In this document: piece by piece, positions 5,365-37,036 of the stretch
How positions within the stretch are numbered: the stretch's first letter is position 1
Layout: every line of letters starts with the position of its first letter
Assembly (NCBI GenBank): GCA_016432485.1
Contig: CP066691.1
Coordinates: forward strand, 153,294-217,293
Direction: 5' to 3'
From: Candidatus Niyogibacteria bacterium
Lineage (GTDB): Bacteria; Patescibacteriota; Minisyncoccia; HO2-45-28
Length of the DNA: 64,000 nt
Translations under genes and position numbers: made by a program
Notes under the pieces: generated by a model
Databases searched by the model: none
Seen by the model: only the letters and a program-made list of their open reading frames with translations
What the model was told of the DNA's origin: nothing

Positions 5365-5985
5365 TTAATAAATTAATAAATGAGTTAGATATTCAAGACA
5401 CATTTTTCGGCCGATATTAAAAACCGCGGAGGATTCTCTGGCTTGACGTATTTTTAAAATGAATTCGTGTCTATTTTCATCCATTGCCCGGCGTTCCAGA
5501 CCGTCCAAAAAAACGCTGAATTTTTCCGGGTCTTCGGCCATTGTCATTATCATTTTTGAGCGGGAAATATAGTCGGCTTTTACGAATTCTGATATTGTGT
5601 CGGACTTTTCGGCGCCTTCATCAAGAGTAATTTCAACCAACCTTGAACGCAAAGTCTGAGGCAGCGTATCTGAATGTTCGGTCAACAATAAAAAATGCCG
5701 GCCGGGCAGGGCGTCCTCAATAGTTTTAAGAACGGCCTGGGGAACATAACGGCTTATTTTTGCCGCGTTCAAAATGAAAAACGAGCGTTCGGATTCGCCT
5801 ACGCTTTGCAAAGATTTTTCTTTAAGCTGTCTGGCTTCTTCAATCCCGATTACGCCGTCAAACAAAAAAACTTCGCCGCGCTTTTTAAGAGAATCCGTCA
5901 ATTCCGAAACGTTAATTTTCCCGATTAAAAGGTATCCGTTTGCCAAAAGGCCGCGTTTTATGTGATTCTCAAGAACCTTGTGCAT
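5365..5985 (-). CDS. holB: DNA polymerase III delta-prime-like clamp-loader subunit (short form).
   Basis: 206 aa. It has the clamp-loader TLRSR (SRC-like) motif and an AAA+ lid-like C-terminus, but no intact Walker A, as is typical for delta-prime. Confidence 0.5.
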   Translation of the reverse strand: MHKVLENHIKRGLLANGYLLIGKINVSELTDSLKKRGEVFLFDGVIGIEEARQLKEKSLQSVGESERSFFILNAAKISRYVPQAVLKTIEDALPGRHFLLLTEHSDTLPQTLRSRLVEITLDEGAEKSDTISEFVKADYISRSKMIMTMAEDPEKFSVFLDGLERRAMDENRHEFILKIRQARESSAVFNIGRKMCLEYLTHLLIY

Positions 5986-26065: not shown

Positions 26066-26491
26066 CTAATCAGGAAAAATTCTAACCCTTCTCCTGAAAC
26101 TTTCGGTTTTAACTTCTTTCGGCTGAAAAATCTTTTTAAGGTATTCAATTGCTTTCTTGTTTATGGCTTTTTCACCGCAGGTAAAAATATCAACCGCGAC
26201 AAATTTAAATTCGGGCCAGGTGTGAATCGCGATGTGTGATTCCGCCAAAACCACGACAATAGTGATCGCGGCTCGTGAAAATGTATGGGAAATTGATTGT
26301 CTACCGTTTTCACGAAAACCCGGACCAATTCCGCTGTGAAAGGCGGCTGCGTTCTTTACTGTTGCCCCGGCTGCTTTTGCGGCAGCAACGGCATGCTTTC
26401 TGTAAGTTCCGGCTGTTTTAAATATTCTGCGACAACCAGAAAACTCCGCTAATGTCTCTTTACCAACATGAAGCACCTCTTCCTCGCTCAT
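26066..26491 (-). CDS. speH: S-adenosylmethionine decarboxylase proenzyme (pyruvoyl type, SpeH class).
   Basis: VVLAESHIAIHTWPE...VAVDIFTCG self-cleavage/active-site region. The start is placed at the internal ATG (MSEEEV). Confidence 0.75.
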   Translation of the reverse strand: MSEEEVLHVGKETLAEFSGCRRIFKTAGTYRKHAVAAAKAAGATVKNAAAFHSGIGPGFRENGRQSISHTFSRAAITIVVVLAESHIAIHTWPEFKFVAVDIFTCGEKAINKKAIEYLKKIFQPKEVKTESFRRRVRIFPD

Positions 26492-26583
26492 GACACGCCT
26501 CCTTCGGTAAAAATTCCGCAAAAAGTGCAACTGACAAAACTATAGGACAATACTGCGATAAATCAAGGTGTGGAAAACTTAAA

Positions 26584-27897
26584 TCAGCCATTTTTGCGCT
26601 CGGAACAAAATTCGCCCAGAACATGGAGCTTTTTTCTCGCGGAATTGCGAACGGATCCTCTTTCTAAAAATACGCTGAAAGCAACTCTCGCTCCAAAAAA
26701 TTCGCGGGCAAAATCAACAGCGACCTGCGGGTCAAAATCTTTACAGGTAAACAAATCAAGATACAGCGTGCCGTCCCAATAATTGCTTACATGCCCCACT
26801 ATGCTGGACGTTTCTATCAGCTGCACAAAAGACGGACCGGATGTTTTGGATTTTGCGTGGCCGAAATTGTAATACTGAAAACCGCCGAAACGCTTCATGT
26901 TTATTTTTTCACAAAGACGCTCCACAAACTCTTTGCATCTTTCTTCGGCATCAGTAATATCCAAATCGCATCCTTCAATTTCCATGATGAGTTCACAACC
27001 ATAAACCGTCTCAAGGCGCTTTTTTATGTAAGGAGGAAGCAGAAAGGCCGCTTGATGGATTTCAGGACTGTAATAGATTGTGTCCAGATTTCTCGCTTCA
27101 AAGCGCGATTTAATTTCTGAAAAATCCAAGTTTTGGGCCAAAGCTCCGGACTTAACCGCGATTACGAACCCGAAAAGTCCGCCCCAGTAAATTGGGATAG
27201 AAGAAATATAAAGCGACGCCTCGCCGAAAATGCTTTGGATGCACCGGAAATTTGACGGCGCTTCATCCGGCTGGAACTGCAGAGATCCGACTTGGCGCGC
27301 CACGATTCCGCCCGGCTTCAAGATACGATAAACATTTCTGATAAATCTGGCGTTAAAAAGGGGTGTGGACGGTCCTCCGGGATCGGTAGAGTCAATCAAA
27401 ACAAAATCGTAATGGTTATTGGGAACATTTTTCACAAATTCGGCGCCGTCTTCGGAATGAACATGCAACCTAGAATCTTTTTCCGCGCCTCCGGTGAATT
27501 CGGACATATGCTCAAGCGTAAGTTCTCCGACACGCCTATCAATATCAACCAAATCAAGATGTTCTACTGAAAGATGTTTAAAAACTTCACGGGCGATTTC
27601 GTAGTCCCCTCCGCCTATAATCAAACCTCTTTGCGGATTCGGATGCGATATCAAAGGAACGTGAGCCAGCATTTCGCCATATGGAGCGCTAAACTCCAGC
27701 ACGGACGATGTCTGGACAATGCCATCAAGAACGAGAATTTTTCCGAGACGCGCTGTGTCAAAAATCTGAAGATGCTGGAAAGGACTTTCTTCCTCCGTTA
27801 AAACTTTATTCACCTTAACCGCGTATTCGGCATTTCCGTGCAAATTTTCAATGAACCAAAGTTCGTCCCGTTTTTTTCCGTAGTTGATTAGGGGCAT
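26584..27897 (-). CDS. speE: Spermidine synthase fused to a C-terminal AdoMetDC-like domain.
   Basis: The N-terminal 290 aa carry the GGGDG-like LIIGGGDYEIAREV and LIDSTDPGGPS PABS motifs. The C-terminal 140 aa align to SpeH (GCELIMEIEGC...LIETSSIVGHVSNYWDG..LYLDLFTCKDF). Confidence 0.7.
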   Translation of the reverse strand: MPLINYGKKRDELWFIENLHGNAEYAVKVNKVLTEEESPFQHLQIFDTARLGKILVLDGIVQTSSVLEFSAPYGEMLAHVPLISHPNPQRGLIIGGGDYEIAREVFKHLSVEHLDLVDIDRRVGELTLEHMSEFTGGAEKDSRLHVHSEDGAEFVKNVPNNHYDFVLIDSTDPGGPSTPLFNARFIRNVYRILKPGGIVARQVGSLQFQPDEAPSNFRCIQSIFGEASLYISSIPIYWGGLFGFVIAVKSGALAQNLDFSEIKSRFEARNLDTIYYSPEIHQAAFLLPPYIKKRLETVYGCELIMEIEGCDLDITDAEERCKEFVERLCEKINMKRFGGFQYYNFGHAKSKTSGPSFVQLIETSSIVGHVSNYWDGTLYLDLFTCKDFDPQVAVDFAREFFGARVAFSVFLERGSVRNSARKKLHVLGEFCSERKNG

Positions 27898-28616: not shown

Positions 28617-30344
28617 TTATTTTTTTATTTTTTCAATCCCCCTCTTCGCGTAAGATTCCATTTTTTTAATTTTTTCTTTCAAATTGTTAAGAATGTGTTC
28701 GTCATCTACGGGAGTCGGAGTTCGCCGCGCCACATCAAGTGCCTCGATATCTTCCATAATAAGACCGAATATTTTTGTTATCTCGGATTGCATAAAAACA
28801 ACGCGTAAAGCCAACTTATTTTCCCTTTTTTTATAAAACCACGTACCCCCTCCGAACCCAACAATTAATACTAAAAGCAGCAATAAAGCTGTTCCTCCTT
28901 TGCCAAGCGATATGAAGCCGATTGAAATAATCGGTTTGCTTCTTACTTTAATTTCATCAGACGCAACCTCAAGACTCAAAGCGCCGCGATCGTCACGGCT
29001 TTGAGCAATTGCAACATAATCTCCGTTTTTTGGCGGAGCATCAAAAGTGCCTTCCCACCTCCCTCTTTCGTCACTACGAACTACTTTTTGCGCGGTAATT
29101 TCATATTTATCATTTCGCAACAAACGCCTCACGCTCAAAAGCACATCTAAATTAGCCGGAGCAGTGCCGTTAATTGCCAGCGGAATTTCGTCATCGGAAA
29201 AAACTTCCGAGGTTATAAAAGCAATGACCGGAGAATCAATGGGCAGAATTTCAAGCGTCAAACCGTTTTCAACTCCGTTTCCGGCCGCATCCACGGCCCT
29301 AATTACAACTTGTCTTTTGCCCGGCGCCTGCAGAGGTAACTTGAAAACTCCGTTAAATCCATCCGCGGGGATTCTTATCAGGTCTCCAACGCCTATGCGG
29401 ATTTGATATTCGGCAATTCCAGAAAGAGCGTCCGTTGTTTGAAAATTTAAAGTCGGCGATGGATTATCCGTAAACAAACCCTCTAAAGAAACCGCCTCAA
29501 AACCCGCCGGCGGACGGGTATCTACCGCCAGACGATAATGGGAAACAGGTCCCCAGCCGATGTTATTGCGAAAACGAATATGAAAATAACTCACGCCGTC
29601 GCTCAGCGATTCAAATGTTTTTTCTTCAAACAAGCCCTCCGATACCGCCGTAGGCGCATAGTTGGGCTGGGTATTTAAGGCGGTACTCACGCCGGAAACA
29701 TCCGGCGGCAAATCCCAGCGCGCCGTAAAAATATCCGAAATGTTATACCAGCGAGAAAGGTCGGGGTAAAGCGGAACAGATATTTCCGGTTTTGCCGGCA
29801 ATCCGGCGGCAGCAGCTGGAGTCCTCGTAATTTGCCGCGGCTCTGGGACTGCTGGCCGGCTTATTTCCGGCAAAACGCTTATTAAAGCGCCACTGATTTT
29901 TGACAAAATATTCGTACCGCTGCCATCGGACGCGGTTATGGCGGCTTCAGGCAAAAGAAGCTCGGCCTGTCCGCTTCCGCGGGTTTTAAAAACAATTTTT
30001 AAAATTTGAATTGAACTTCCGGAAACTCCGTATGGCGTTCCGCCAATAAATGAAACAATGCCCTCGTTATTTGAAAAATTGGGCTCTTCAAGCCAAAAAC
30101 TGAAAGCCGATCCGTCTTTTTTTAGAGAAACTACTTCTAATGTTTCTTTTGGGAAACGGATAACGGCTTGACCGGCGTTAAATCCGGCGCCCTCGCTATC
30201 TATTTTTATATCCATGATTATTTCATCCCCAACTCCCGCGTCTAAATTTGAAGGCGATGCAAAAATGGTCGCGGCCTCCGCCAAGCCGGCGAAAGAAAAA
30301 ACCAATAATAACCCAAGTAACATTAAAATATGTTTATGTTTCAT
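28617..30344 (-). CDS. Signal-peptide-bearing protein with an N-terminal cohesin-like domain, Ig-like middle domains and a C-terminal TM anchor.
   Basis: 575 aa. Signal peptide MKHKHILMLLGLLLVFSFAGLAEA. The cohesin assignment for aa 25-160 is based on pattern similarity. C-terminal TM helix ALLLLLVLIVGFGGG. Confidence 0.55.
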   Translation of the reverse strand: MKHKHILMLLGLLLVFSFAGLAEAATIFASPSNLDAGVGDEIIMDIKIDSEGAGFNAGQAVIRFPKETLEVVSLKKDGSAFSFWLEEPNFSNNEGIVSFIGGTPYGVSGSSIQILKIVFKTRGSGQAELLLPEAAITASDGSGTNILSKISGALISVLPEISRPAVPEPRQITRTPAAAAGLPAKPEISVPLYPDLSRWYNISDIFTARWDLPPDVSGVSTALNTQPNYAPTAVSEGLFEEKTFESLSDGVSYFHIRFRNNIGWGPVSHYRLAVDTRPPAGFEAVSLEGLFTDNPSPTLNFQTTDALSGIAEYQIRIGVGDLIRIPADGFNGVFKLPLQAPGKRQVVIRAVDAAGNGVENGLTLEILPIDSPVIAFITSEVFSDDEIPLAINGTAPANLDVLLSVRRLLRNDKYEITAQKVVRSDERGRWEGTFDAPPKNGDYVAIAQSRDDRGALSLEVASDEIKVRSKPIISIGFISLGKGGTALLLLLVLIVGFGGGTWFYKKRENKLALRVVFMQSEITKIFGLIMEDIEALDVARRTPTPVDDEHILNNLKEKIKKMESYAKRGIEKIKK

Positions 30345-32038
30345 TTTCTTTTTATGCTACGAATAAAAATACTAAAATCCGATACGTCAATTTTACCATC
30401 ATTATTAAAATCAATTTTCCCCCTAGCTTCTTCTTTCTTTTTAGAACCCCAGAGCGCGAGAAAAATACTCCAATCCCTTATATCAACAACGTTATCACTG
30501 CTTAAATCGGCGCTAACCTGCTGGAGACGGGAAACTGTAAAAGAATTAAGCGGGGAAAGATCGCTTTCTTGTTTGGTCGCCGGATTAACCTGTTTCGCGT
30601 AAATGCCGTGAGTGCCGAATTCCAATTCCCCCGTGGGGATTATAATTTTATACGAGCCATCGTCTCCCGCGTCAGCTTCAATTTTTACCTTGCCGTCAAC
30701 TTCAGCGCGGACTTTGTGGCCCGGTGAAGCATAGCCCAGAATCACTAAGGATTCGCCGCGCGTGACGGCCGATTTTGCGAAACCCAAAGTCGGGGGCACA
30801 AATATTTCTTTTTTAGTTAAACTATTTGAAATCGTGTCTATATTAAAAAATTTGGTCTGGGTTTTCCGGCCTTCGCTATCTTTAATAACCAGGCCAAAAC
30901 CATGCTGTCCCTGGAGCACTCCGACAAATTCTATATTAAAAACTCCGTCTTCAGTTAAAACCTTGCCTTGGCTTAAAACTTTTTCGTATCTAGTGTCTTT
31001 GTCTACGATAAAGGTGCTTCCTCCAGGGAACGCCTGCCCCGAAAAACGGATTCTTGTGGGGGGAATGGAGAATTTTGGCGTTGGCGGAAAAAATATTCCG
31101 GGACAATTTTGATAAGTATCCAAAGGCGAACCGGCATCGGTTATTCTAAAAATATAAACATCCTCAAAAACGAAACCCTCTTTGTCTTCCAAAACCCATT
31201 CGTATTCTGTTTTTTCGTTTTTAAGCATTGATCTCGAAGGTGCGGGATTGACAGAACTCAGTATAAGTCCCGACACAAAACCTGCCCCTGAAGTAATTTG
31301 CTGAGTTGTCACAGATGAATCGGTGAAATAAGGGGAGGAGCTTAAAACGAATTTGCCGCTTGATCCCGAAATCCTTTGCCATCCGCCTGAACTTGAACAA
31401 CTTTCATTTTCAGATACTTTTTTAAATTCTAATTGTGGAGAAATTGTCCCGGCCGCGTTCTTAACACGAATACCAAACCTCAATCTGAACTTACTTGGAT
31501 ATTCCAAATGGCTTCTAGGGTTTTGTTGGGAATTTTGAAGCGTGTTTTCAACGTCCCACCCGGTTGCGCTAGTCTCTGAACCGTCGTCGTCGCGGAACCA
31601 AAAATCGCTCTGGACAAAAGAAGCGTTTTCGGCAGGGCCAAAAACTATTTGCCGCGTAGAACTCACGTCTAACCCAGTCCCTTCTGTATCGGAGAGAGAC
31701 AAATTTACGGTTTCCGCGACAGAATCATTTATCGAAATAATTCCAACTCCGTTCACAATATCAATCAGCCCTCCGCCTGTGGCCGAACCGTTCGCAACCA
31801 ATGTCACATCGTTTTGATAAACCGCATAAACTTGGTTGTTACTCTTTTGAGCTTGAACTGTGACCAAAACTGGAATTCCTACAGTGCTATTATCCGGATT
31901 CAAAATCACAAATTTAACCGCGCCAGTCGGCTGAGCCGCCTTCGCTAAAATAAAAGGTAAAATCAGCAAGCCCGCGATTAAAAATTTTTTAATTTTAAGC
32001 ATGCGATTACTGCGCCGAAGAAGAACGTTGACCGCCAA
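30341..32038 (-). CDS. Secreted multi-domain protein ending in a type I dockerin.
   Basis: 565 aa. Signal/TM at the N-terminus. The C-terminal duplicated Ca-binding segments DLSSDNVVDIRDWSIFL and DFNNDGKIDVSDFSIFI match the dockerin DxNxDGxIDxxD pattern. Confidence 0.65.
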   Translation of the reverse strand: MAVNVLLRRSNRMLKIKKFLIAGLLILPFILAKAAQPTGAVKFVILNPDNSTVGIPVLVTVQAQKSNNQVYAVYQNDVTLVANGSATGGGLIDIVNGVGIISINDSVAETVNLSLSDTEGTGLDVSSTRQIVFGPAENASFVQSDFWFRDDDGSETSATGWDVENTLQNSQQNPRSHLEYPSKFRLRFGIRVKNAAGTISPQLEFKKVSENESCSSSGGWQRISGSSGKFVLSSSPYFTDSSVTTQQITSGAGFVSGLILSSVNPAPSRSMLKNEKTEYEWVLEDKEGFVFEDVYIFRITDAGSPLDTYQNCPGIFFPPTPKFSIPPTRIRFSGQAFPGGSTFIVDKDTRYEKVLSQGKVLTEDGVFNIEFVGVLQGQHGFGLVIKDSEGRKTQTKFFNIDTISNSLTKKEIFVPPTLGFAKSAVTRGESLVILGYASPGHKVRAEVDGKVKIEADAGDDGSYKIIIPTGELEFGTHGIYAKQVNPATKQESDLSPLNSFTVSRLQQVSADLSSDNVVDIRDWSIFLALWGSKKKEEARGKIDFNNDGKIDVSDFSIFIRSIKRK

Positions 32039-32396
32039 GGTATGCCTTGACCATATCTATGACTTCCTCAATAGGATGCTGGGATTTGACGAAATAATTT
32101 TCGGCTCCGAGCGAAAGAGCTTTTTTAATATCGGCGTCTCCCCCCAGATTTGAAAGCACGATTACCGGAATCGTTTTTAGCGCGGGATCTTTTTTAATCT
32201 CCTCAAGTACTGAAAATCCGTCGCGTTTCGGCAAAAGCAAATCTAACAAGACAATGTCCGGGCGATTCGTTCTTATTCGTTCAATCGCGCTGTCGCCGTC
32301 CATAGCGACATCCGCGCTGAAATTTTCAGTTTCAAGGTTATCCTTAAGAACTCGGACCAAAAACTCTTCATCTTCAACAATCAAAACTTTGTTCAT
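32007..32396 (-). CDS. Single-domain response regulator (CheY-like receiver).
   Basis: 129 aa. The phospho-acceptor Asp lies in IVLLDLLLPKRDG. It overlaps the downstream dockerin gene by about 30 nt. Confidence 0.85.
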   Translation of the reverse strand: MNKVLIVEDEEFLVRVLKDNLETENFSADVAMDGDSAIERIRTNRPDIVLLDLLLPKRDGFSVLEEIKKDPALKTIPVIVLSNLGGDADIKKALSLGAENYFVKSQHPIEEVIDMVKAYLGGQRSSSAQ

Positions 32397-32413
32397 AATT
32401 ATTTTTTAAATTA

Positions 32414-34105
32414 TTAATTTCCCAATTTAGGAAGGCGTAAATAAAAAGTCGACCCTTTTCCTTTTTCGGATTTGAAATATATCGACCCTCCTATTTTTTC
32501 GGCAGAAATTTTGGCAATATAAAGGCCGAGCCCGGTGCCGTCCGGCTTCATCACTTTGGCGTTTGAGGCGCGATAAAATCTTTCAAAAATCCTGCCTTCT
32601 TCGTTTTTAGGAATACCTATTCCGCTGTCCGTTACCGAAAAAATAATCGCGTCCGGCCCATCTTTTATATCCAAAACCGCTTTTTTCCCGGCATCTGAAT
32701 AATTAATCGCGTTTGAAATAAAACATTCAAGTACGGTGCTTAAAAAATCACGTGATGTTTTTATTTTTAAGCCATAAACGGAAGAGGTGTGTTTAAATTC
32801 AACCCCCTTGCTTTTTGCCGCGGGTTCAAATGAATCAGATAATTCTTTTAATAATGAATCAACATCAATTATTTCCTTTTTGATATTCTTCATGCCCTCA
32901 AGACCCAAAACATTAAGCATGTCGTAAACCAATACGATCATTTTTTCGTTTGCGCGATAAATCTCGTCAATGTACTCCTTTTGTTTCGGATTCAATTCCC
33001 CCAAAACCCCTTTTTGCAGGGTCTCTATAAGCCACTTGATTCCGGAAAGCGGAGTTCTTAATTGGTGCGACGCCAGCGTAATAAAATCCGTTCTGGTTTT
33101 TTCCAATTCTTTTTCTTTGGTGATATTTCTTTCAATGCCCACAAAAAAGATTACATTGCCTCTATCGTCCAAAACCGGAGCAATCGTGACCTCGGCAAAA
33201 TAATTTTCTCCGCTTTTTCTTTGATTTTTAAGTTCGCCTTTAAATACTTTTTTATCGTATTTTATGGTTTTCCACATCTTTTCATAAAACTCCTGCGGCA
33301 TTTTTTTGCCCCATAAAGACGGGCGGGCGCCAATCATTTCTTCCAGGGAATATCCGGTTGTCTTTTCCGCTGCCTTATTGGCGTACATAATAACGCCGTC
33401 ACTATCGGTAATGATGATATGGTCAGACGCGTTTTCAACAGCCAATTTGTATTTTTCCATTTCGCGCATCGGTTCTTGCGCCGTTTTTCTGAATAAAAAT
33501 ATGAGCGTAAGCCAATAAATAAAAATTGCTAAAAAAATAAACAATCCAACAAAAAAACGAGCACGCGCCATTAACGCGTTGATTTCGTCCAAATTAAAAT
33601 AGGTCTCAATTACGCCCGCTGGCGTCCGGCTTTCCATAAAAAATACCGGCACATAAATTTCCATCAGTTGGGAATAAGACCGCTCGGATTTATTTTCCGA
33701 TTTAATTGGCTCCTGAATTTCACTGACCGTCTCTCCCAAAATCGCCTTATTAAATTCTTCGTTATCCGTAAATTTCTGCCCGACAATAGTCGCGTCATCT
33801 GAAAAAATAATCCTCGCGCCCCTGTCCCAAACCTTAATTCTGATTATGTTGGGTGCCTGAATATCTTGGAAAAAAAACCAAAACTTTTGTCTGACCAGTG
33901 GGGGGTCTTCTATTAAAAAGTCGTCCTCCGTTAACTCCTTGCTGGCGTGAACCCGGATCAACTGCGCGACGTAAGAACTACTTATTTCAAGCAAGTAATT
34001 TTTTAAAATGTAACTTACGCCGAAATTCAGAGCCAAAACAAGAAAAAACAGGAAAATAAACGTAAACAAAGAAAACCTGTTCGCAAGACGTCTTTTTTTA
34101 AACAT
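32414..34105 (-). CDS. Membrane sensor histidine kinase with PAS domain.
   Basis: 563 aa. Two TM segments, a PAS domain (IIITDSDGVIMYANKAAEKTTGY), the H-box ASHQLRTPL, and G-boxes DSGIGIP / GTGLGLYIA. Confidence 0.85.
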   Translation of the reverse strand: MFKKRRLANRFSLFTFIFLFFLVLALNFGVSYILKNYLLEISSSYVAQLIRVHASKELTEDDFLIEDPPLVRQKFWFFFQDIQAPNIIRIKVWDRGARIIFSDDATIVGQKFTDNEEFNKAILGETVSEIQEPIKSENKSERSYSQLMEIYVPVFFMESRTPAGVIETYFNLDEINALMARARFFVGLFIFLAIFIYWLTLIFLFRKTAQEPMREMEKYKLAVENASDHIIITDSDGVIMYANKAAEKTTGYSLEEMIGARPSLWGKKMPQEFYEKMWKTIKYDKKVFKGELKNQRKSGENYFAEVTIAPVLDDRGNVIFFVGIERNITKEKELEKTRTDFITLASHQLRTPLSGIKWLIETLQKGVLGELNPKQKEYIDEIYRANEKMIVLVYDMLNVLGLEGMKNIKKEIIDVDSLLKELSDSFEPAAKSKGVEFKHTSSVYGLKIKTSRDFLSTVLECFISNAINYSDAGKKAVLDIKDGPDAIIFSVTDSGIGIPKNEEGRIFERFYRASNAKVMKPDGTGLGLYIAKISAEKIGGSIYFKSEKGKGSTFYLRLPKLGN

Positions 34106-34109
34106 ATGT

Positions 34110-34316
34110 TTAATCGCTGTTTTTGTGGGCTTCTATCGTAACGCCCCTTTGCGGATCAATCCTTACGGCCACCAATTTTAAGCAGTGCGGACACTTCATA
34201 ATAAACGAAATTCCCGCTCGGCCATTGTTTTTATTCTTAAAATCTTTAAAAACGATCCCTCTGCAATAAGGGCAGTGACCCAAGTTTTCCCCATCTTTGC
34301 TGACAAATTTGGTCAT
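34110..34316 (-). CDS. Small C4 zinc-ribbon protein.
   Basis: 68 aa. CPYC...CPHC pairs. Confidence 0.4.
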   Translation of the reverse strand: MTKFVSKDGENLGHCPYCRGIVFKDFKNKNNGRAGISFIMKCPHCLKLVAVRIDPQRGVTIEAHKNSD

Positions 34317-34442
34317 TAAAAGTAAAAAAACCCACGCAATTCAAAATATGAATTTTGTAGGCCGTAGAGCTACAAAGAATTAACTTTAATTTATATAGTT
34401 TTAAACACTTTTATTATACAATAAAATTGACTTTCCCATAAC

Positions 34443-34453
34443 CCCCCCCCCCC
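34443..34453. repeat. Homopolymeric C11 tract in the intergenic region upstream of murB.
   Basis: aaccccccccccctcaac read directly. Confidence 0.7.
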
Positions 34454-35524: not shown

Positions 35525-37036
35525 TTATTCCATAACCACAACCGCGCCTGTCATTGAAGGATTCAGATGATTGTGATATTTCCAAGCTCCAACATGGTCA
35601 AAACGAAATTCGTATTTTTCTCCATTGGCTAGGCGCCGGCAAACGTCAAAAGCGCTGCCCAAACATCCGCCTTTTTGAGGATAGACGGCGTGCGTCGGAT
35701 GAACGGCTGACGCCGGCCAAGCGTCTAATCCGCTTTCATTTACCCAAACAACGCTTCCGCCTTTTTTAATCTTTACTTCCAACGGCTCAAAACCATTTCC
35801 GGTTATTTTTACAACTACCGAAGCCGGACTTTCAGCAACCGGTTTAGAAGCGGTTTCCGATTTTTTGTCGGCTCTCAACTCCGGTTTTTTTACCGACTCG
35901 TTAGAACGCTTGACCACTTCTTCTAAAGATTTTTTTGCGGAGTTTGAATTGCGTAAAGAACTGTTTGCTTGTCCCAGCGCTTCTCCGAAATTCTTGGCAT
36001 CAAACGCTTCCCGAGATTTCTTTAAGTGGTCTTCGGCGTTAGCTAAAAGTTCTTTAACATTTTGAGGTATTGCTTTTCCGTCGTTTTCATAGCGCGCAAT
36101 TTTATCTTTAAGCTCGATTATTGATTTTTCGGCCTCAACTATCGCGCGTTTGGCTTTTTCGGCGACATCAAATCTGTCGCGCTCAATATCGCGTAAAAGT
36201 TCATCCCCCTCCCCGTTTTTTAATTCGTGGCGAGCCCTAAGTTTGATAATGGTTGAAGCGGCGTCTTTCACGCCCTCTTTAAGCTCTTTTCTGACTTCTT
36301 TCAATTCATCCCGCGATTCAACATTAACCAAGCGGTCTTCCAGGATTTTTAGTTTCGTTTCAAAACGCTCTTTCAATTCCGGCGGAATTTCTCCGGATTT
36401 TTCGGCAATTTCTTCCAAATGCTCTGATCGACGCTCAAGCTGCTTTTTGAGACGCTCAATATTATTTTCTAAAAGCTCCTTGGCCTTTTCCTGCTTTATT
36501 AAATTCTTCTCAACTTGGCGCTTCAAGACCTCTTCGGACTTATCAAGCCCTTTTCTTGAACTTTCAAGAGCACGATTCAAGGCCTCGCGCGCATGCTCCG
36601 GCGCTTTATCCAAAACGCCCTCAAGCACTGACTGCTGTTTTAAAGAAAGGTCATTAAATTTCGCGATTAAAGAATCCAAATTGCGGCCTTCTGTATCCAA
36701 ACGTTCCAAATCGCCTTCGGCGGCTTCAGCCCTCACTCTGGCAAAGCCCTCCGCGCGCTCAACAACCGCGCTTTCGGCTCCCGACTCAACAACCGCCTTC
36801 AATTCCGCAAGGCGCTTTTCGGCAATTTCAACCTTCACTTCCGCTTTCCTGACGGCATTAAAAGTTAAAAGGTTTAGGCGCGTCCAATCGCCGAATCGTT
36901 CAAAAATGTGGAGTGGACTGGCGGGCGTAAGGCCGGCGTCGGGCAGAACTTCGTCTGTTTCTTGCGCAAAAACAGTCGTTGAGAAGGTTAAGACAAAACT
37001 TATAATCAAGACCTGTAAAATTATTTTCTTTGCCAT
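35525..37036 (-). CDS. Secreted coiled-coil protein, DUF5667-like N-terminus, with a C-terminal domain carrying His/Cys/Met residues reminiscent of a cupredoxin fold.
   Basis: 503 aa. Signal peptide, LPDAGLTPASPLH motif, long E/K-rich coiled coil. The antisense + ORF 36150..37049 is an artefact. Confidence 0.45.
   Translation of the reverse strand: MAKKIILQVLIISFVLTFSTTVFAQETDEVLPDAGLTPASPLHIFERFGDWTRLNLLTFNAVRKAEVKVEIAEKRLAELKAVVESGAESAVVERAEGFARVRAEAAEGDLERLDTEGRNLDSLIAKFNDLSLKQQSVLEGVLDKAPEHAREALNRALESSRKGLDKSEEVLKRQVEKNLIKQEKAKELLENNIERLKKQLERRSEHLEEIAEKSGEIPPELKERFETKLKILEDRLVNVESRDELKEVRKELKEGVKDAASTIIKLRARHELKNGEGDELLRDIERDRFDVAEKAKRAIVEAEKSIIELKDKIARYENDGKAIPQNVKELLANAEDHLKKSREAFDAKNFGEALGQANSSLRNSNSAKKSLEEVVKRSNESVKKPELRADKKSETASKPVAESPASVVVKITGNGFEPLEVKIKKGGSVVWVNESGLDAWPASAVHPTHAVYPQKGGCLGSAFDVCRRLANGEKYEFRFDHVGAWKYHNHLNPSMTGAVVVME

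Follow-up and report, generated by a model that had tools for sequence, protein, structure and literature searches.

A cohesin-tipped membrane anchor, its dockerin partner and a two-component system in one operon of Paceibacteria: a candidate signalling adhesion module

The present work concerns an operon of a Candidatus Niyogibacteria bacterium (Patescibacteria, candidate phyla radiation (CPR)), located in a stretch of 64,000 nucleotides (nt) from contig CP066691.1 (positions 153,294 to 217,293), hereafter called the window. On the minus strand of the window, from 28617 to 34316, five open reading frames (ORFs) follow each other head to tail, and the coordinates of all of them were confirmed in the ORF list of the window. 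In the order of transcription they encode a zinc-ribbon-like protein, a sensor histidine kinase, a receiver-only response regulator, a secreted surface protein that ends in a dockerin, and a membrane anchor tipped by a cohesin, the sequence of which is that of HYY55_00890 (Table 1). Our results indicate that the surface pair and the signalling genes form a conserved cassette, in which the dockerin protein very probably binds its neighbour and the anchor may pass a signal to the kinase.

Table 1. Features of the operon and of its upstream region, with positions in the window (aa, amino acids; pLDDT, predicted local distance difference test; pTM, predicted template modelling score)
Feature	Coordinates	Strand	Basis
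Zinc-ribbon-like protein, 68 aa, first gene of the operon	34110-34316	-	two CxxC pairs (CxxC...CxxC); weak zinc-ribbon Pfam matches
Sensor histidine kinase, 563 aa	32414-34105	-	Pfam: PAS_9 1.5e-18, HisKA 7.3e-13, HATPase_c 2.3e-23
PAS domain of the kinase, residues 211-335	33101-33475	-	Pfam
Receiver-only response regulator, 129 aa, without output domain	32007-32396	-	PF00072 6.6e-24, residues 4-108
Secreted modular surface protein, 553 aa	30341-32002	-	ORF, alignment of homologues, junction reading
Ig-like pre-dockerin module, residues 323-497	30548-31072	-	aligned in about 81 loci
Dockerin, residues 509-564	30347-30514	-	PF00404, 24.6 bits vs gathering score 22.9 (match residues 510-562)
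Membrane anchor, 575 aa	28617-30344	-	full-length AlphaFold model, pLDDT 83.6
Cohesin module, residues 24-160	29865-30275	-	domain-only AlphaFold model, pLDDT 91.2, pTM 0.83
Stalk, three Ig-like beta-sandwich domains, residues 190-280, 281-368 and 369-470	28935-29777	-	secondary structure of the model
Transmembrane helix, residues ~482-505	28830-28901	-	continuous helix from residue 482 in the AlphaFold model
Cytoplasmic tail, residues 506-575 (70 aa), two helices, conserved TPTxxDDE motif	28620-28829	-	AlphaFold model, alignment
G12 homopolymer within the 192 nt that precede the operon	34442-34453	-	126 nt upstream of the first start codon

The genes are tightly packed. Read from the sequence, the stop codon of the zinc-ribbon gene is followed after 4 nt by the ATG of the kinase, and the kinase stop after 17 nt by the ATG of the regulator. 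The junction between the regulator and the dockerin gene reads TAA-TCGC-ATG, a spacer of 4 nt which presumes the ATG at 32002 as the start of the dockerin gene, and the stop of the dockerin gene and the start of the anchor gene share ATGA and thus overlap by 4 nt. These junctions (4, 17, 4 and -4 nt) agreed with the original prediction, made from the DNA sequence, that five genes lie co-oriented and closely spaced on the minus strand. A consensus scan for promoters or terminators inside the operon, including the boundary between the signalling and the surface genes, gave nothing above the shuffled expectation. The gaps are, moreover, too short to hold such an element.

The original prediction had also given the anchor an N-terminal cohesin-like module and a C-terminal transmembrane (TM) segment. 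In the AlphaFold model, the chain runs from a signal peptide through the cohesin, a disordered proline-rich linker and three beta-sandwich domains (190-470) to a TM helix and a helical cytoplasmic tail. The TM helix continues into a long cytoplasmic helix, after which comes a second helix, and in the sequence the hydrophobic run is followed by WFYKKR, consistent with the positive-inside rule; the C-terminal anchor was therefore borne out, with a 70-aa tail added to it. For the cohesin the evidence came mainly from the fold. All top 50 Foldseek matches of the domain model in the PDB were cohesins (template modelling score 0.6-0.75, E 1.5e-8 to 1e-6), covering type I, II and III cellulosomal cohesins as well as the non-cellulosomal ones of Clostridium perfringens and Archaeoglobus fulgidus; the module thus has the flattened, nine-stranded jelly-roll sandwich of this fold. 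Furthermore, the Pfam cohesin family PF00963 was matched by 11 of the 36 full-length anchor orthologues (E<=0.01, best 4.9e-8), and two members of the anchor family, P0247 (45.6 bits) and P0250 (44.9 bits), exceeded its gathering score of 24.1. However, PF00963 had no match at E<=0.1 in the anchor of the window itself, which weighs against the assignment, and when PDB chains were searched by sequence, cohesins were matched below threshold only (E 0.07-0.45), the best being those of Ruminococcus flavefaciens. The cohesin claim thus stands on the fold and on the orthologues, but not on a Pfam match of the window protein. In the stalk, Big_13 was matched in 32 of the 36 orthologues, the window anchor had a weak OmpL47-type match at residues 298-356, and in some anchors of the family (P0143, P0169) a bacterial SH3 domain was inserted there. 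We could not detect S-layer homology (SLH) repeats in Pfam scans of the window anchor and its orthologues. Mean pairwise identity along the anchor was 0.25 in the signal peptide, 0.55-0.56 in the ectodomains and 0.52 in the tail. The tail is therefore about as conserved as the ectodomains, indicating that it has a conserved intracellular partner.

The dockerin-bearing protein was listed as an ORF of 565 aa (30341-32038) that opens at a TTG within the regulator gene. The ATG at 32002, from which a protein of 553 aa with the N-terminus MLKIKKFLIAGLLILPFILAKA and a clean signal peptide would be made, is the more likely start; the longer ORF assumed in the original prediction exists as listed, but its length is probably not that of the protein. 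In the numbering of the 565-aa ORF, the signal peptide is followed by module A (~40-140), a variable middle part (145-320), an Ig-like pre-dockerin module and the dockerin. Module A occurs in three to five copies in homologues, which are up to 3312 aa long. The pre-dockerin module corresponds to sub-threshold Big_6 matches found 40-100 aa ahead of the dockerin in homologues, and this conserved Ig-like module and the dockerin together appear to resemble the X-module-dockerin (XDoc) dyad. The dockerin consists of two EF-hand-like calcium loops, DLSSDNVVDIRD followed by WSIFLALW and DFNNDGKIDVSD followed by FSIFIRSI, so that each loop is joined to a [WF]SIF helix. The family consensus, derived from an alignment of 78 loci, is DxNxDGxVDIxD[WF]SIF, present twice, from which the first loop of the window dockerin deviates slightly (S3, N6). 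With PF00404 above its gathering score and both loop-helix repeats present, the predicted secreted protein with a terminal dockerin was confirmed, and PF00404 also matched 36 of 38 orthologous partner proteins. These partners span 327-3312 aa, and their domain content differs even between close relatives. The modules recognised by Pfam among the 38 were Big_6/Ig, FN3, TIG, InlB-B repeats, SusE-like domains (in two partners), RTX, DUF11, CBM96 (in one), beta-helix and BNR, i.e. modules of the binding type only, and no carbohydrate-active catalytic domain (glycoside hydrolase, carbohydrate esterase or polysaccharide lyase) was found among them by Pfam. Likewise, we failed to detect an enzyme domain in the dockerin protein of the window by Pfam or by sequence search against PDB chains, the latter returning an EF-hand resemblance only.

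The kinase and the regulator were as originally predicted, a PAS histidine kinase and a CheY-like receiver-only protein, according to the Pfam families PAS, HisKA, HATPase_c and PF00072. In the window kinase, two TM helices enclose an extracytoplasmic loop of about 150 aa, and the cytoplasmic PAS, HisKA and HATPase_c domains follow. The residues around the phospho-acceptor site of the regulator are well kept in the family: E8, D9, D52 and K104 are invariant, position 82 is S or T, and Y101 is found in 76 of 79 cassette regulators. As the regulator has no DNA-binding domain, it must act via protein-protein contacts. A TM scan of the 51 complete cassette kinases predicted no TM segment in 26 of them. 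Four cassette kinases were bare DHp-CA cores of 240-244 aa with no sensor domain, and such a core is the sole cassette kinase in one locus (L008). Kinases of these two kinds cannot sense the outside without a partner.

The conservation of the operon was then a question of how widely its relatives are spread, and here the result was strongly positive. Hundreds of full-length proteins are homologous to the anchor at 48-60% identity, and its family comprised 2282 representatives of 50%-identity clusters at E<=1e-30. Relatives of the anchor were found in at least 128 GTDB species-representative genomes, which belonged to Paceibacteria-type lineages wherever the record named a lineage. We compared the window with 88 fetched relatives, i.e. 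89 loci. In 85 of these, a dockerin-ending ORF lay directly upstream of the anchor on the same strand, most commonly with a 4-nt overlap, and the exceptions mostly had no upstream sequence. Exactly one cohesin ORF and one dockerin ORF were present in the 64-kb window and in 84-87 of the 88 related loci. Among 47 non-redundant loci with sequence on both sides of the pair, a receiver-only gene directly flanked the pair in 41 (21 upstream, 13 downstream, 7 on both sides) and was one gene away in the other six, while only one such ORF occurred in 346.5 kb of distal flank. A kinase lay within 4 kb of the pair in 23 of 24 loci, and the gene order in which a single-pass membrane protein is encoded beside the kinase was conserved in 74 non-redundant loci. 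The cassette is therefore standard, class-wide equipment of Paceibacteria (Parcubacteria, CPR). The original prediction had called the pairing no standard operon type; this holds for the literature, where it is unusual, but not for Paceibacteria.

Several lines of evidence argue that the dockerin and the cohesin are dedicated to each other: their one-to-one co-occurrence together with translational coupling, a natural fusion that replaces them, and their co-evolution. In the fusion (locus L091), an N-terminal region of about 600 aa with a PA14 domain is joined directly to anchor residues 160-575 in place of the cohesin. This locus has neither a cohesin nor a dockerin ORF but kept the kinase and a regulator very similar to that of the window (E 1.6e-59), indicating that a covalent link stands in for the cohesin-dockerin pair. 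In partial Mantel tests of 72 loci, dockerin divergence followed cohesin divergence best with the rest of the anchor controlled (partial r 0.31, p=0.001) and did not follow the tail (0.04, not significant). Two results weigh against this reading. The dockerin was also correlated with the stalk domain D3 (0.21), and when mutual information was computed for column pairs of anchor and dockerin, the cohesin did not stand out from the other anchor domains, a null that is probably explained by a nearly invariant interface. Taken together, these sequence comparisons suggest that the dockerin very probably docks on the neighbouring cohesin and displays the adhesin. About 6 kb downstream of the cassette in L009 (15961-19885) lies a second, differently built cohesin-dockerin set, which has no counterpart in the window: a 546-aa protein with Big_6 and a dockerin (PF00404, 34.6 bits) and then two short proteins with a cohesin, one of 336 aa and one of 404 aa, the longer of which matched PF00963 with 31.1 bits, above the gathering score. 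Another architectural variant of the anchor family is seen in L092 (1002-7482), where the dockerin protein is succeeded by a cohesin protein of 302 aa and a two-cohesin protein of 1211 aa, a tandem duplication cut by the contig end.

On the cytoplasmic side, the divergence of the kinase core followed that of the anchor in a graded manner: partial r was 0.466 for the tail (p=0.001), 0.275 for the TM helix, 0.14 for the membrane-proximal domain D4 and about 0 for the distal domains. The tail was also the part of the anchor that regulator divergence followed most closely, whether all loci or either of the two gene-order subsets were used (partial r 0.25-0.37, p<=0.003). With the regulator controlled, the kinase-tail coupling was 0.63, while the regulator-tail coupling fell to 0.14 with the kinase controlled; the correlation of regulator and kinase distances was 0.34. 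Our first hypothesis, that the receiver-only regulator binds the tail directly, was demoted to a rival, as most of its signal is explained through the kinase. Furthermore, in L063, L069/L089 and L082 the anchor is built as ectodomain-TM-PAS, with a PAS domain in place of the tail. These fused PAS domains scored 109-121 bits against the PAS of the window kinase, compared with 114-163 for the HisKA-proximal PAS of other cassette kinases and 60 or less for generic PAS domains, indicating that they belong to the cassette-kinase subfamily. No kinase or regulator was found near the PAS-fused anchors in the sequenced flanks (both sides for L063 and L089, downstream only for L082). By its domain order, such an anchor looks like the input half of a sensor kinase.

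These data argue for contact between the anchor and the kinase, but a number of points have to be set against it. When phylogeny is shared, partial Mantel tests yield false positives at an inflated rate, the co-variation of the cytoplasmic domains may come from shared compositional drift, and a weak correlation was also seen between domain D2 and the regulator. The PAS-fused anchors probably go back to a single fusion event and, having no kinase domain, show association and no direction. In addition, the window kinase, which spans the membrane twice and has its own extracytoplasmic loop, could sense alone. Weighing both sides, we consider it somewhat probable, with slightly better than an even chance, that the TM helix and tail of the anchor physically contact the kinase. 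Given such a coupling, information would probably flow mainly from outside to inside. The original prediction placed the surface pair under the control of the sensory system. The tight operon linkage was confirmed, but the arrow may point the other way, with the surface complex as input of the kinase: the co-evolution of tail and TM helix with the kinase core, the lack of TM segments in half of the kinases, the four bare cores and the PAS-fused anchors all argue for that possibility.

We therefore tentatively read the cassette as a signalling adhesion module, in which adhesins are displayed in a modular way and the anchor serves as input to a two-component phosphorelay; as a whole, this reading falls a little short of an even chance. 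In such a module, a non-enzymatic surface protein exported by the Sec pathway would carry a lineage-variable binding payload and end in the Ig-like module and the dockerin. The dockerin would plug one-to-one into the single cohesin that tips the proline-rich linker and the three-domain Ig-like stalk of a type-I membrane protein, and the stalk would hold the payload well away from the membrane. The TM helix and tail of the anchor would contact the adjacent kinase, making the anchor a transmembrane co-sensor, so that occupancy or load of the adhesin could modulate kinase activity through it. Thereafter, the kinase would phosphorylate the receiver-only regulator, which would act on its target via protein-protein contacts. 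The role of the module is likely the sensing and management of attachment to a host cell or a surface. A more far-reaching version is conceivable, though somewhat unlikely. In that version the cohesin-dockerin bond is itself the extracellular input of the two-component system: a swappable dockerin-adhesin grips the host, its occupancy or load is passed through the rigid Ig stalk and the single TM helix to a tail that gates an often sensor-less kinase, and the regulator triggers a fast, non-transcriptional response. The cassette would then be the principal means by which Paceibacteria sense host contact, a bacterial equivalent of integrin-type adhesion signalling, and host range would be set by payload exchange, possibly phase-variable via the poly-G tract.

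The signalling adhesion module competes with four other explanations. In the first, the two-component system is only co-transcribed with the pair, or controls its expression indirectly via an unlinked partner, and anchor and kinase do not touch. Operon linkage alone would account for the adjacency of the genes, shared lineage-specific rates can produce partial Mantel correlations, and the upstream homopolymer tract hints at transcriptional on/off control. However, a receiver-only regulator cannot bind DNA, and a conserved 70-aa cytoplasmic tail needs a partner. Mere neighbours would also hardly be expected to show a correlation that falls from tail to TM helix to D4 to the distal domains, to include PAS-anchor fusions and sensor-less kinases, or to keep the signalling genes where a covalent fusion replaces the cohesin-dockerin pair. 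We regard this explanation as unlikely.

The second explanation reverses the direction: the kinase would sense via its own PAS or extracytoplasmic sensor and, with the phosphorylated regulator, act on the anchor tail and switch adhesion by changing the clustering, localisation or conformation of the anchor, as in integrin activation. A regulator with no DNA-binding domain that directly adjoins the pair and whose divergence tracks the tail best in all three subsets fits such control, as do the sensor loop and PAS of the window kinase, and the PAS-fused anchors with no kinase nearby could be read as a direct route by which a signal sensed by the PAS reaches the anchor. However, the link between regulator and tail is weak once the kinase is controlled, compared with that between kinase and tail, and the tail has no recognisable receiver-binding motif. 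Moreover, the sensor-less bare kinase cores need an input, which the anchor could supply. On balance, control from inside to outside seems quite unlikely.

Third, the pair could attach an S-layer or surface coat while the kinase monitors envelope integrity in a WalK-like manner. The best NCBIfam likeness of the window kinase was indeed to WalK, PnpS and PhoR, and the cassette is near-universal and single-copy; the whole-chain Foldseek search with the anchor also returned the S-layer proteins 7ptp and 8cka. However, all of the NCBIfam scores were far below the family cut-offs, the whole-chain search gave generic Ig/FN3 arrays only, of which the S-layer proteins are instances, and the variation of the payload in size and domains among close relatives fits variable ligand binding better than a lattice. 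An envelope scaffold is therefore very doubtful. Finally, a genuine mini-cellulosome, i.e. a cell-tethered polysaccharide-degrading complex induced by a substrate-sensing two-component system, is almost certainly not what the genes encode: cohesin and dockerin modules are present, a few homologous partners contain the CBM96 or SusE-like domains mentioned above, and there is a precedent in XydS/R beside dockerin-enzyme genes of Ruminiclostridium cellulolyticum (PMC3572039), but there is a single cohesin and no scaffoldin, no enzyme domain could be detected in the window partner, catalytic domains of glycoside hydrolases, esterases or lyases are missing from all 38 partners, and the regulator has no DNA-binding domain. 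The likeness to a mini-cellulosome noted in the original prediction thus holds for the architecture but not for the single cohesin, the anchoring by a TM helix in place of SLH repeats or a sortase, or the partners. Cellulosome identity was rejected, as a multi-cohesin scaffoldin, dockerin-bearing carbohydrate-active enzymes and SLH or sortase anchoring were all looked for and none was found.

Other features of the locus are as follows. The window contains no G/C run of 8 or more other than the G12 homopolymer upstream of the operon, and the closest relative (L009, anchor 90% identical) has G11 (5904-5914) in an otherwise identical intergenic region. Tracts of G9 and C11 were also observed at the 5' edge of the cassette in L046 (4662-4670) and L033 (3415-3425), respectively, and runs of G8-G9 inside the dockerin genes of L005 and L047; in total, 12 such G/C tracts occurred across 1.36 Mb of loci. 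We tentatively place G12 in the system as a candidate phase-variable tract of the surface-protein operon, though it could alternatively be a homopolymer assembly error. The sequence TTATCCACA, a perfect DnaA-box consensus, occurred five times in the window, where 0.3 were expected from shuffles, always on the minus strand (2042, 28604, 34466, 41221 and 51392). Three of the five are intergenic, and two bracket the operon, one just upstream of the G-tract and the other a few nt past the anchor stop. The motif may serve as a promoter or a regulatory element, or DnaA may itself act there as a regulator.

The operon has murB as its upstream and a ribosome hibernation factor as its downstream neighbour, indicating that it is a well delimited unit. 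Homologues of the zinc-ribbon-like gene adjoin the cassette in five loci only (the window, L009, L045, L046 and L057); it is therefore a lineage-specific accessory and no core part. Two genes upstream of the operon (35525-37036), the window encodes a 503-aa secreted protein with an N-terminal DUF5667, a long, charged coiled-coil and a C-terminal beta-rich domain. On the other side, a protein of 437 aa joins a spermidine synthase to an AdoMet-decarboxylase domain at its C-terminus (26584-27897; PF01564 and PF02675), and immediately downstream of it lies a separate 154-aa AdoMet decarboxylase gene (26066-26530). Such a fusion for polyamine synthesis is unusual in a reduced genome. In one Patescibacteria genome (L008/L019), a pair resembling a diversity-generating retroelement, with a bAvd accessory protein and a reverse transcriptase and G11 between the genes (L008 730-2195), was observed 5-7 kb upstream of the cassette.

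The largest CPR class, Paceibacteria (Parcubacteria), is thought to consist of organisms that live attached to hosts. Almost none have been cultured and, to our knowledge, the means by which they attach and perceive their attachment are essentially unknown. The cohesin-dockerin bond is among the strongest non-covalent links between proteins. With its fixed anchor and highly variable partner, the cassette is a concrete and expressible candidate for an attachment and contact-sensing apparatus. If the proposal is true, cohesin-dockerin biology would extend from enzyme scaffolding to receptor signalling, and animal TMEM132, with its cohesin-Ig-TM-tail architecture, would have a prokaryotic parallel. 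In practice, the conserved cohesin-XDoc pair would offer a ready-made orthogonal connector, and the variable payloads a catalogue of candidate host-recognition domains.

Parts of the cassette have counterparts in known systems. OlpA and OlpC of Clostridium thermocellum, which are anchored by SLH repeats, are like the anchor in that one cohesin on a surface anchor captures an individual dockerin protein, and their cohesins were among the top fold matches (3ul4 and 4dh2). Unlike the anchor, they bind cellulosomal enzymes and have neither a cytoplasmic domain nor a linked kinase. In Bacillus, YycH and YycI are single-pass proteins with extracytoplasmic domains that are encoded in the operon of WalK and modulate this PAS kinase by contacts at the membrane level. 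They are anchored N-terminally and have no cohesin or dockerin, and WalR binds DNA. The cassette resembles this system in the membrane protein encoded with the kinase, though in the cassette the support for a contact comes from co-evolution and fusions.

The closest cellulosomal analogue of the cassette is the adhesion arm of R. flavefaciens. In this species the non-enzymatic CttA, with an Ig-like X module and a dockerin (XDoc), docks on the single cohesin of ScaE and mediates adhesion (PMC5301203). As in the cassette, binding protein and single-cohesin surface anchor are encoded in one cluster. However, ScaE is attached to the cell wall by a sortase, lacks both TM helix and tail and also binds the enzyme-loaded scaffoldin ScaB, the cluster contains no two-component system, and the organism is a cellulolytic Firmicute. 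In Ruminiclostridium cellulolyticum, XydS/R is reported to control the expression of genes for CBM6-containing (dockerin-bearing) proteins (PMC3572039). There too, a two-component system adjoins dockerin-protein genes, those of the xyl-doc cluster; the regulator of the cassette differs from it in having no DNA-binding domain, and the partners in being non-enzymatic.

Outside cellulose degradation, cohesin and dockerin serve as a general connector in the glycosidase/toxin complexes of C. perfringens, in A. fulgidus and in anaerobic methanotrophic (ANME) archaea, as they would in the cassette, and the non-cellulosomal cohesins 2jh2, 2w1n, 2vo8 and 2xdh were among the top fold matches of the window cohesin. 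For the pairs of ANME archaea a role in cell-cell interaction was proposed (PMC9012536), and non-cellulosomal pairs are known, according to Peer et al. (2009) as cited there, from across the domains of life. None of these systems is described as a fixed one-to-one pair whose anchor has a TM helix and a conserved tail, or as part of a conserved operon with a kinase and a receiver-only regulator. Within the CPR, an essential dockerin-domain envelope protein was noted in a cultivated Saccharibacterium (PMC10633639). In a literature search that left most subscription journals uncovered, we found for the CPR no description of a cohesin-tipped TM anchor with a conserved tail, of a fixed pairing of such an anchor with a dockerin protein, or of an operon joining it to a kinase and a receiver-only regulator.

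The architecture nearest to the anchor is that of holozoan TMEM132, in which an extracellular cohesin is followed by three bacterial-type Ig domains in tandem, one TM helix and a cytoplasmic tail with signalling motifs, and for which a role as connector between adhesion and cytoskeleton was predicted (PMC6030884). Compared by domain types alone, the two are almost the same. However, TMEM132 is eukaryotic, has no known dockerin partner, and carries tail motifs (PP1, WIRS) unrelated to those of the anchor. Set beside all these systems, the cassette brings parts that are known into an arrangement that is new, conserved and suggestive of function.

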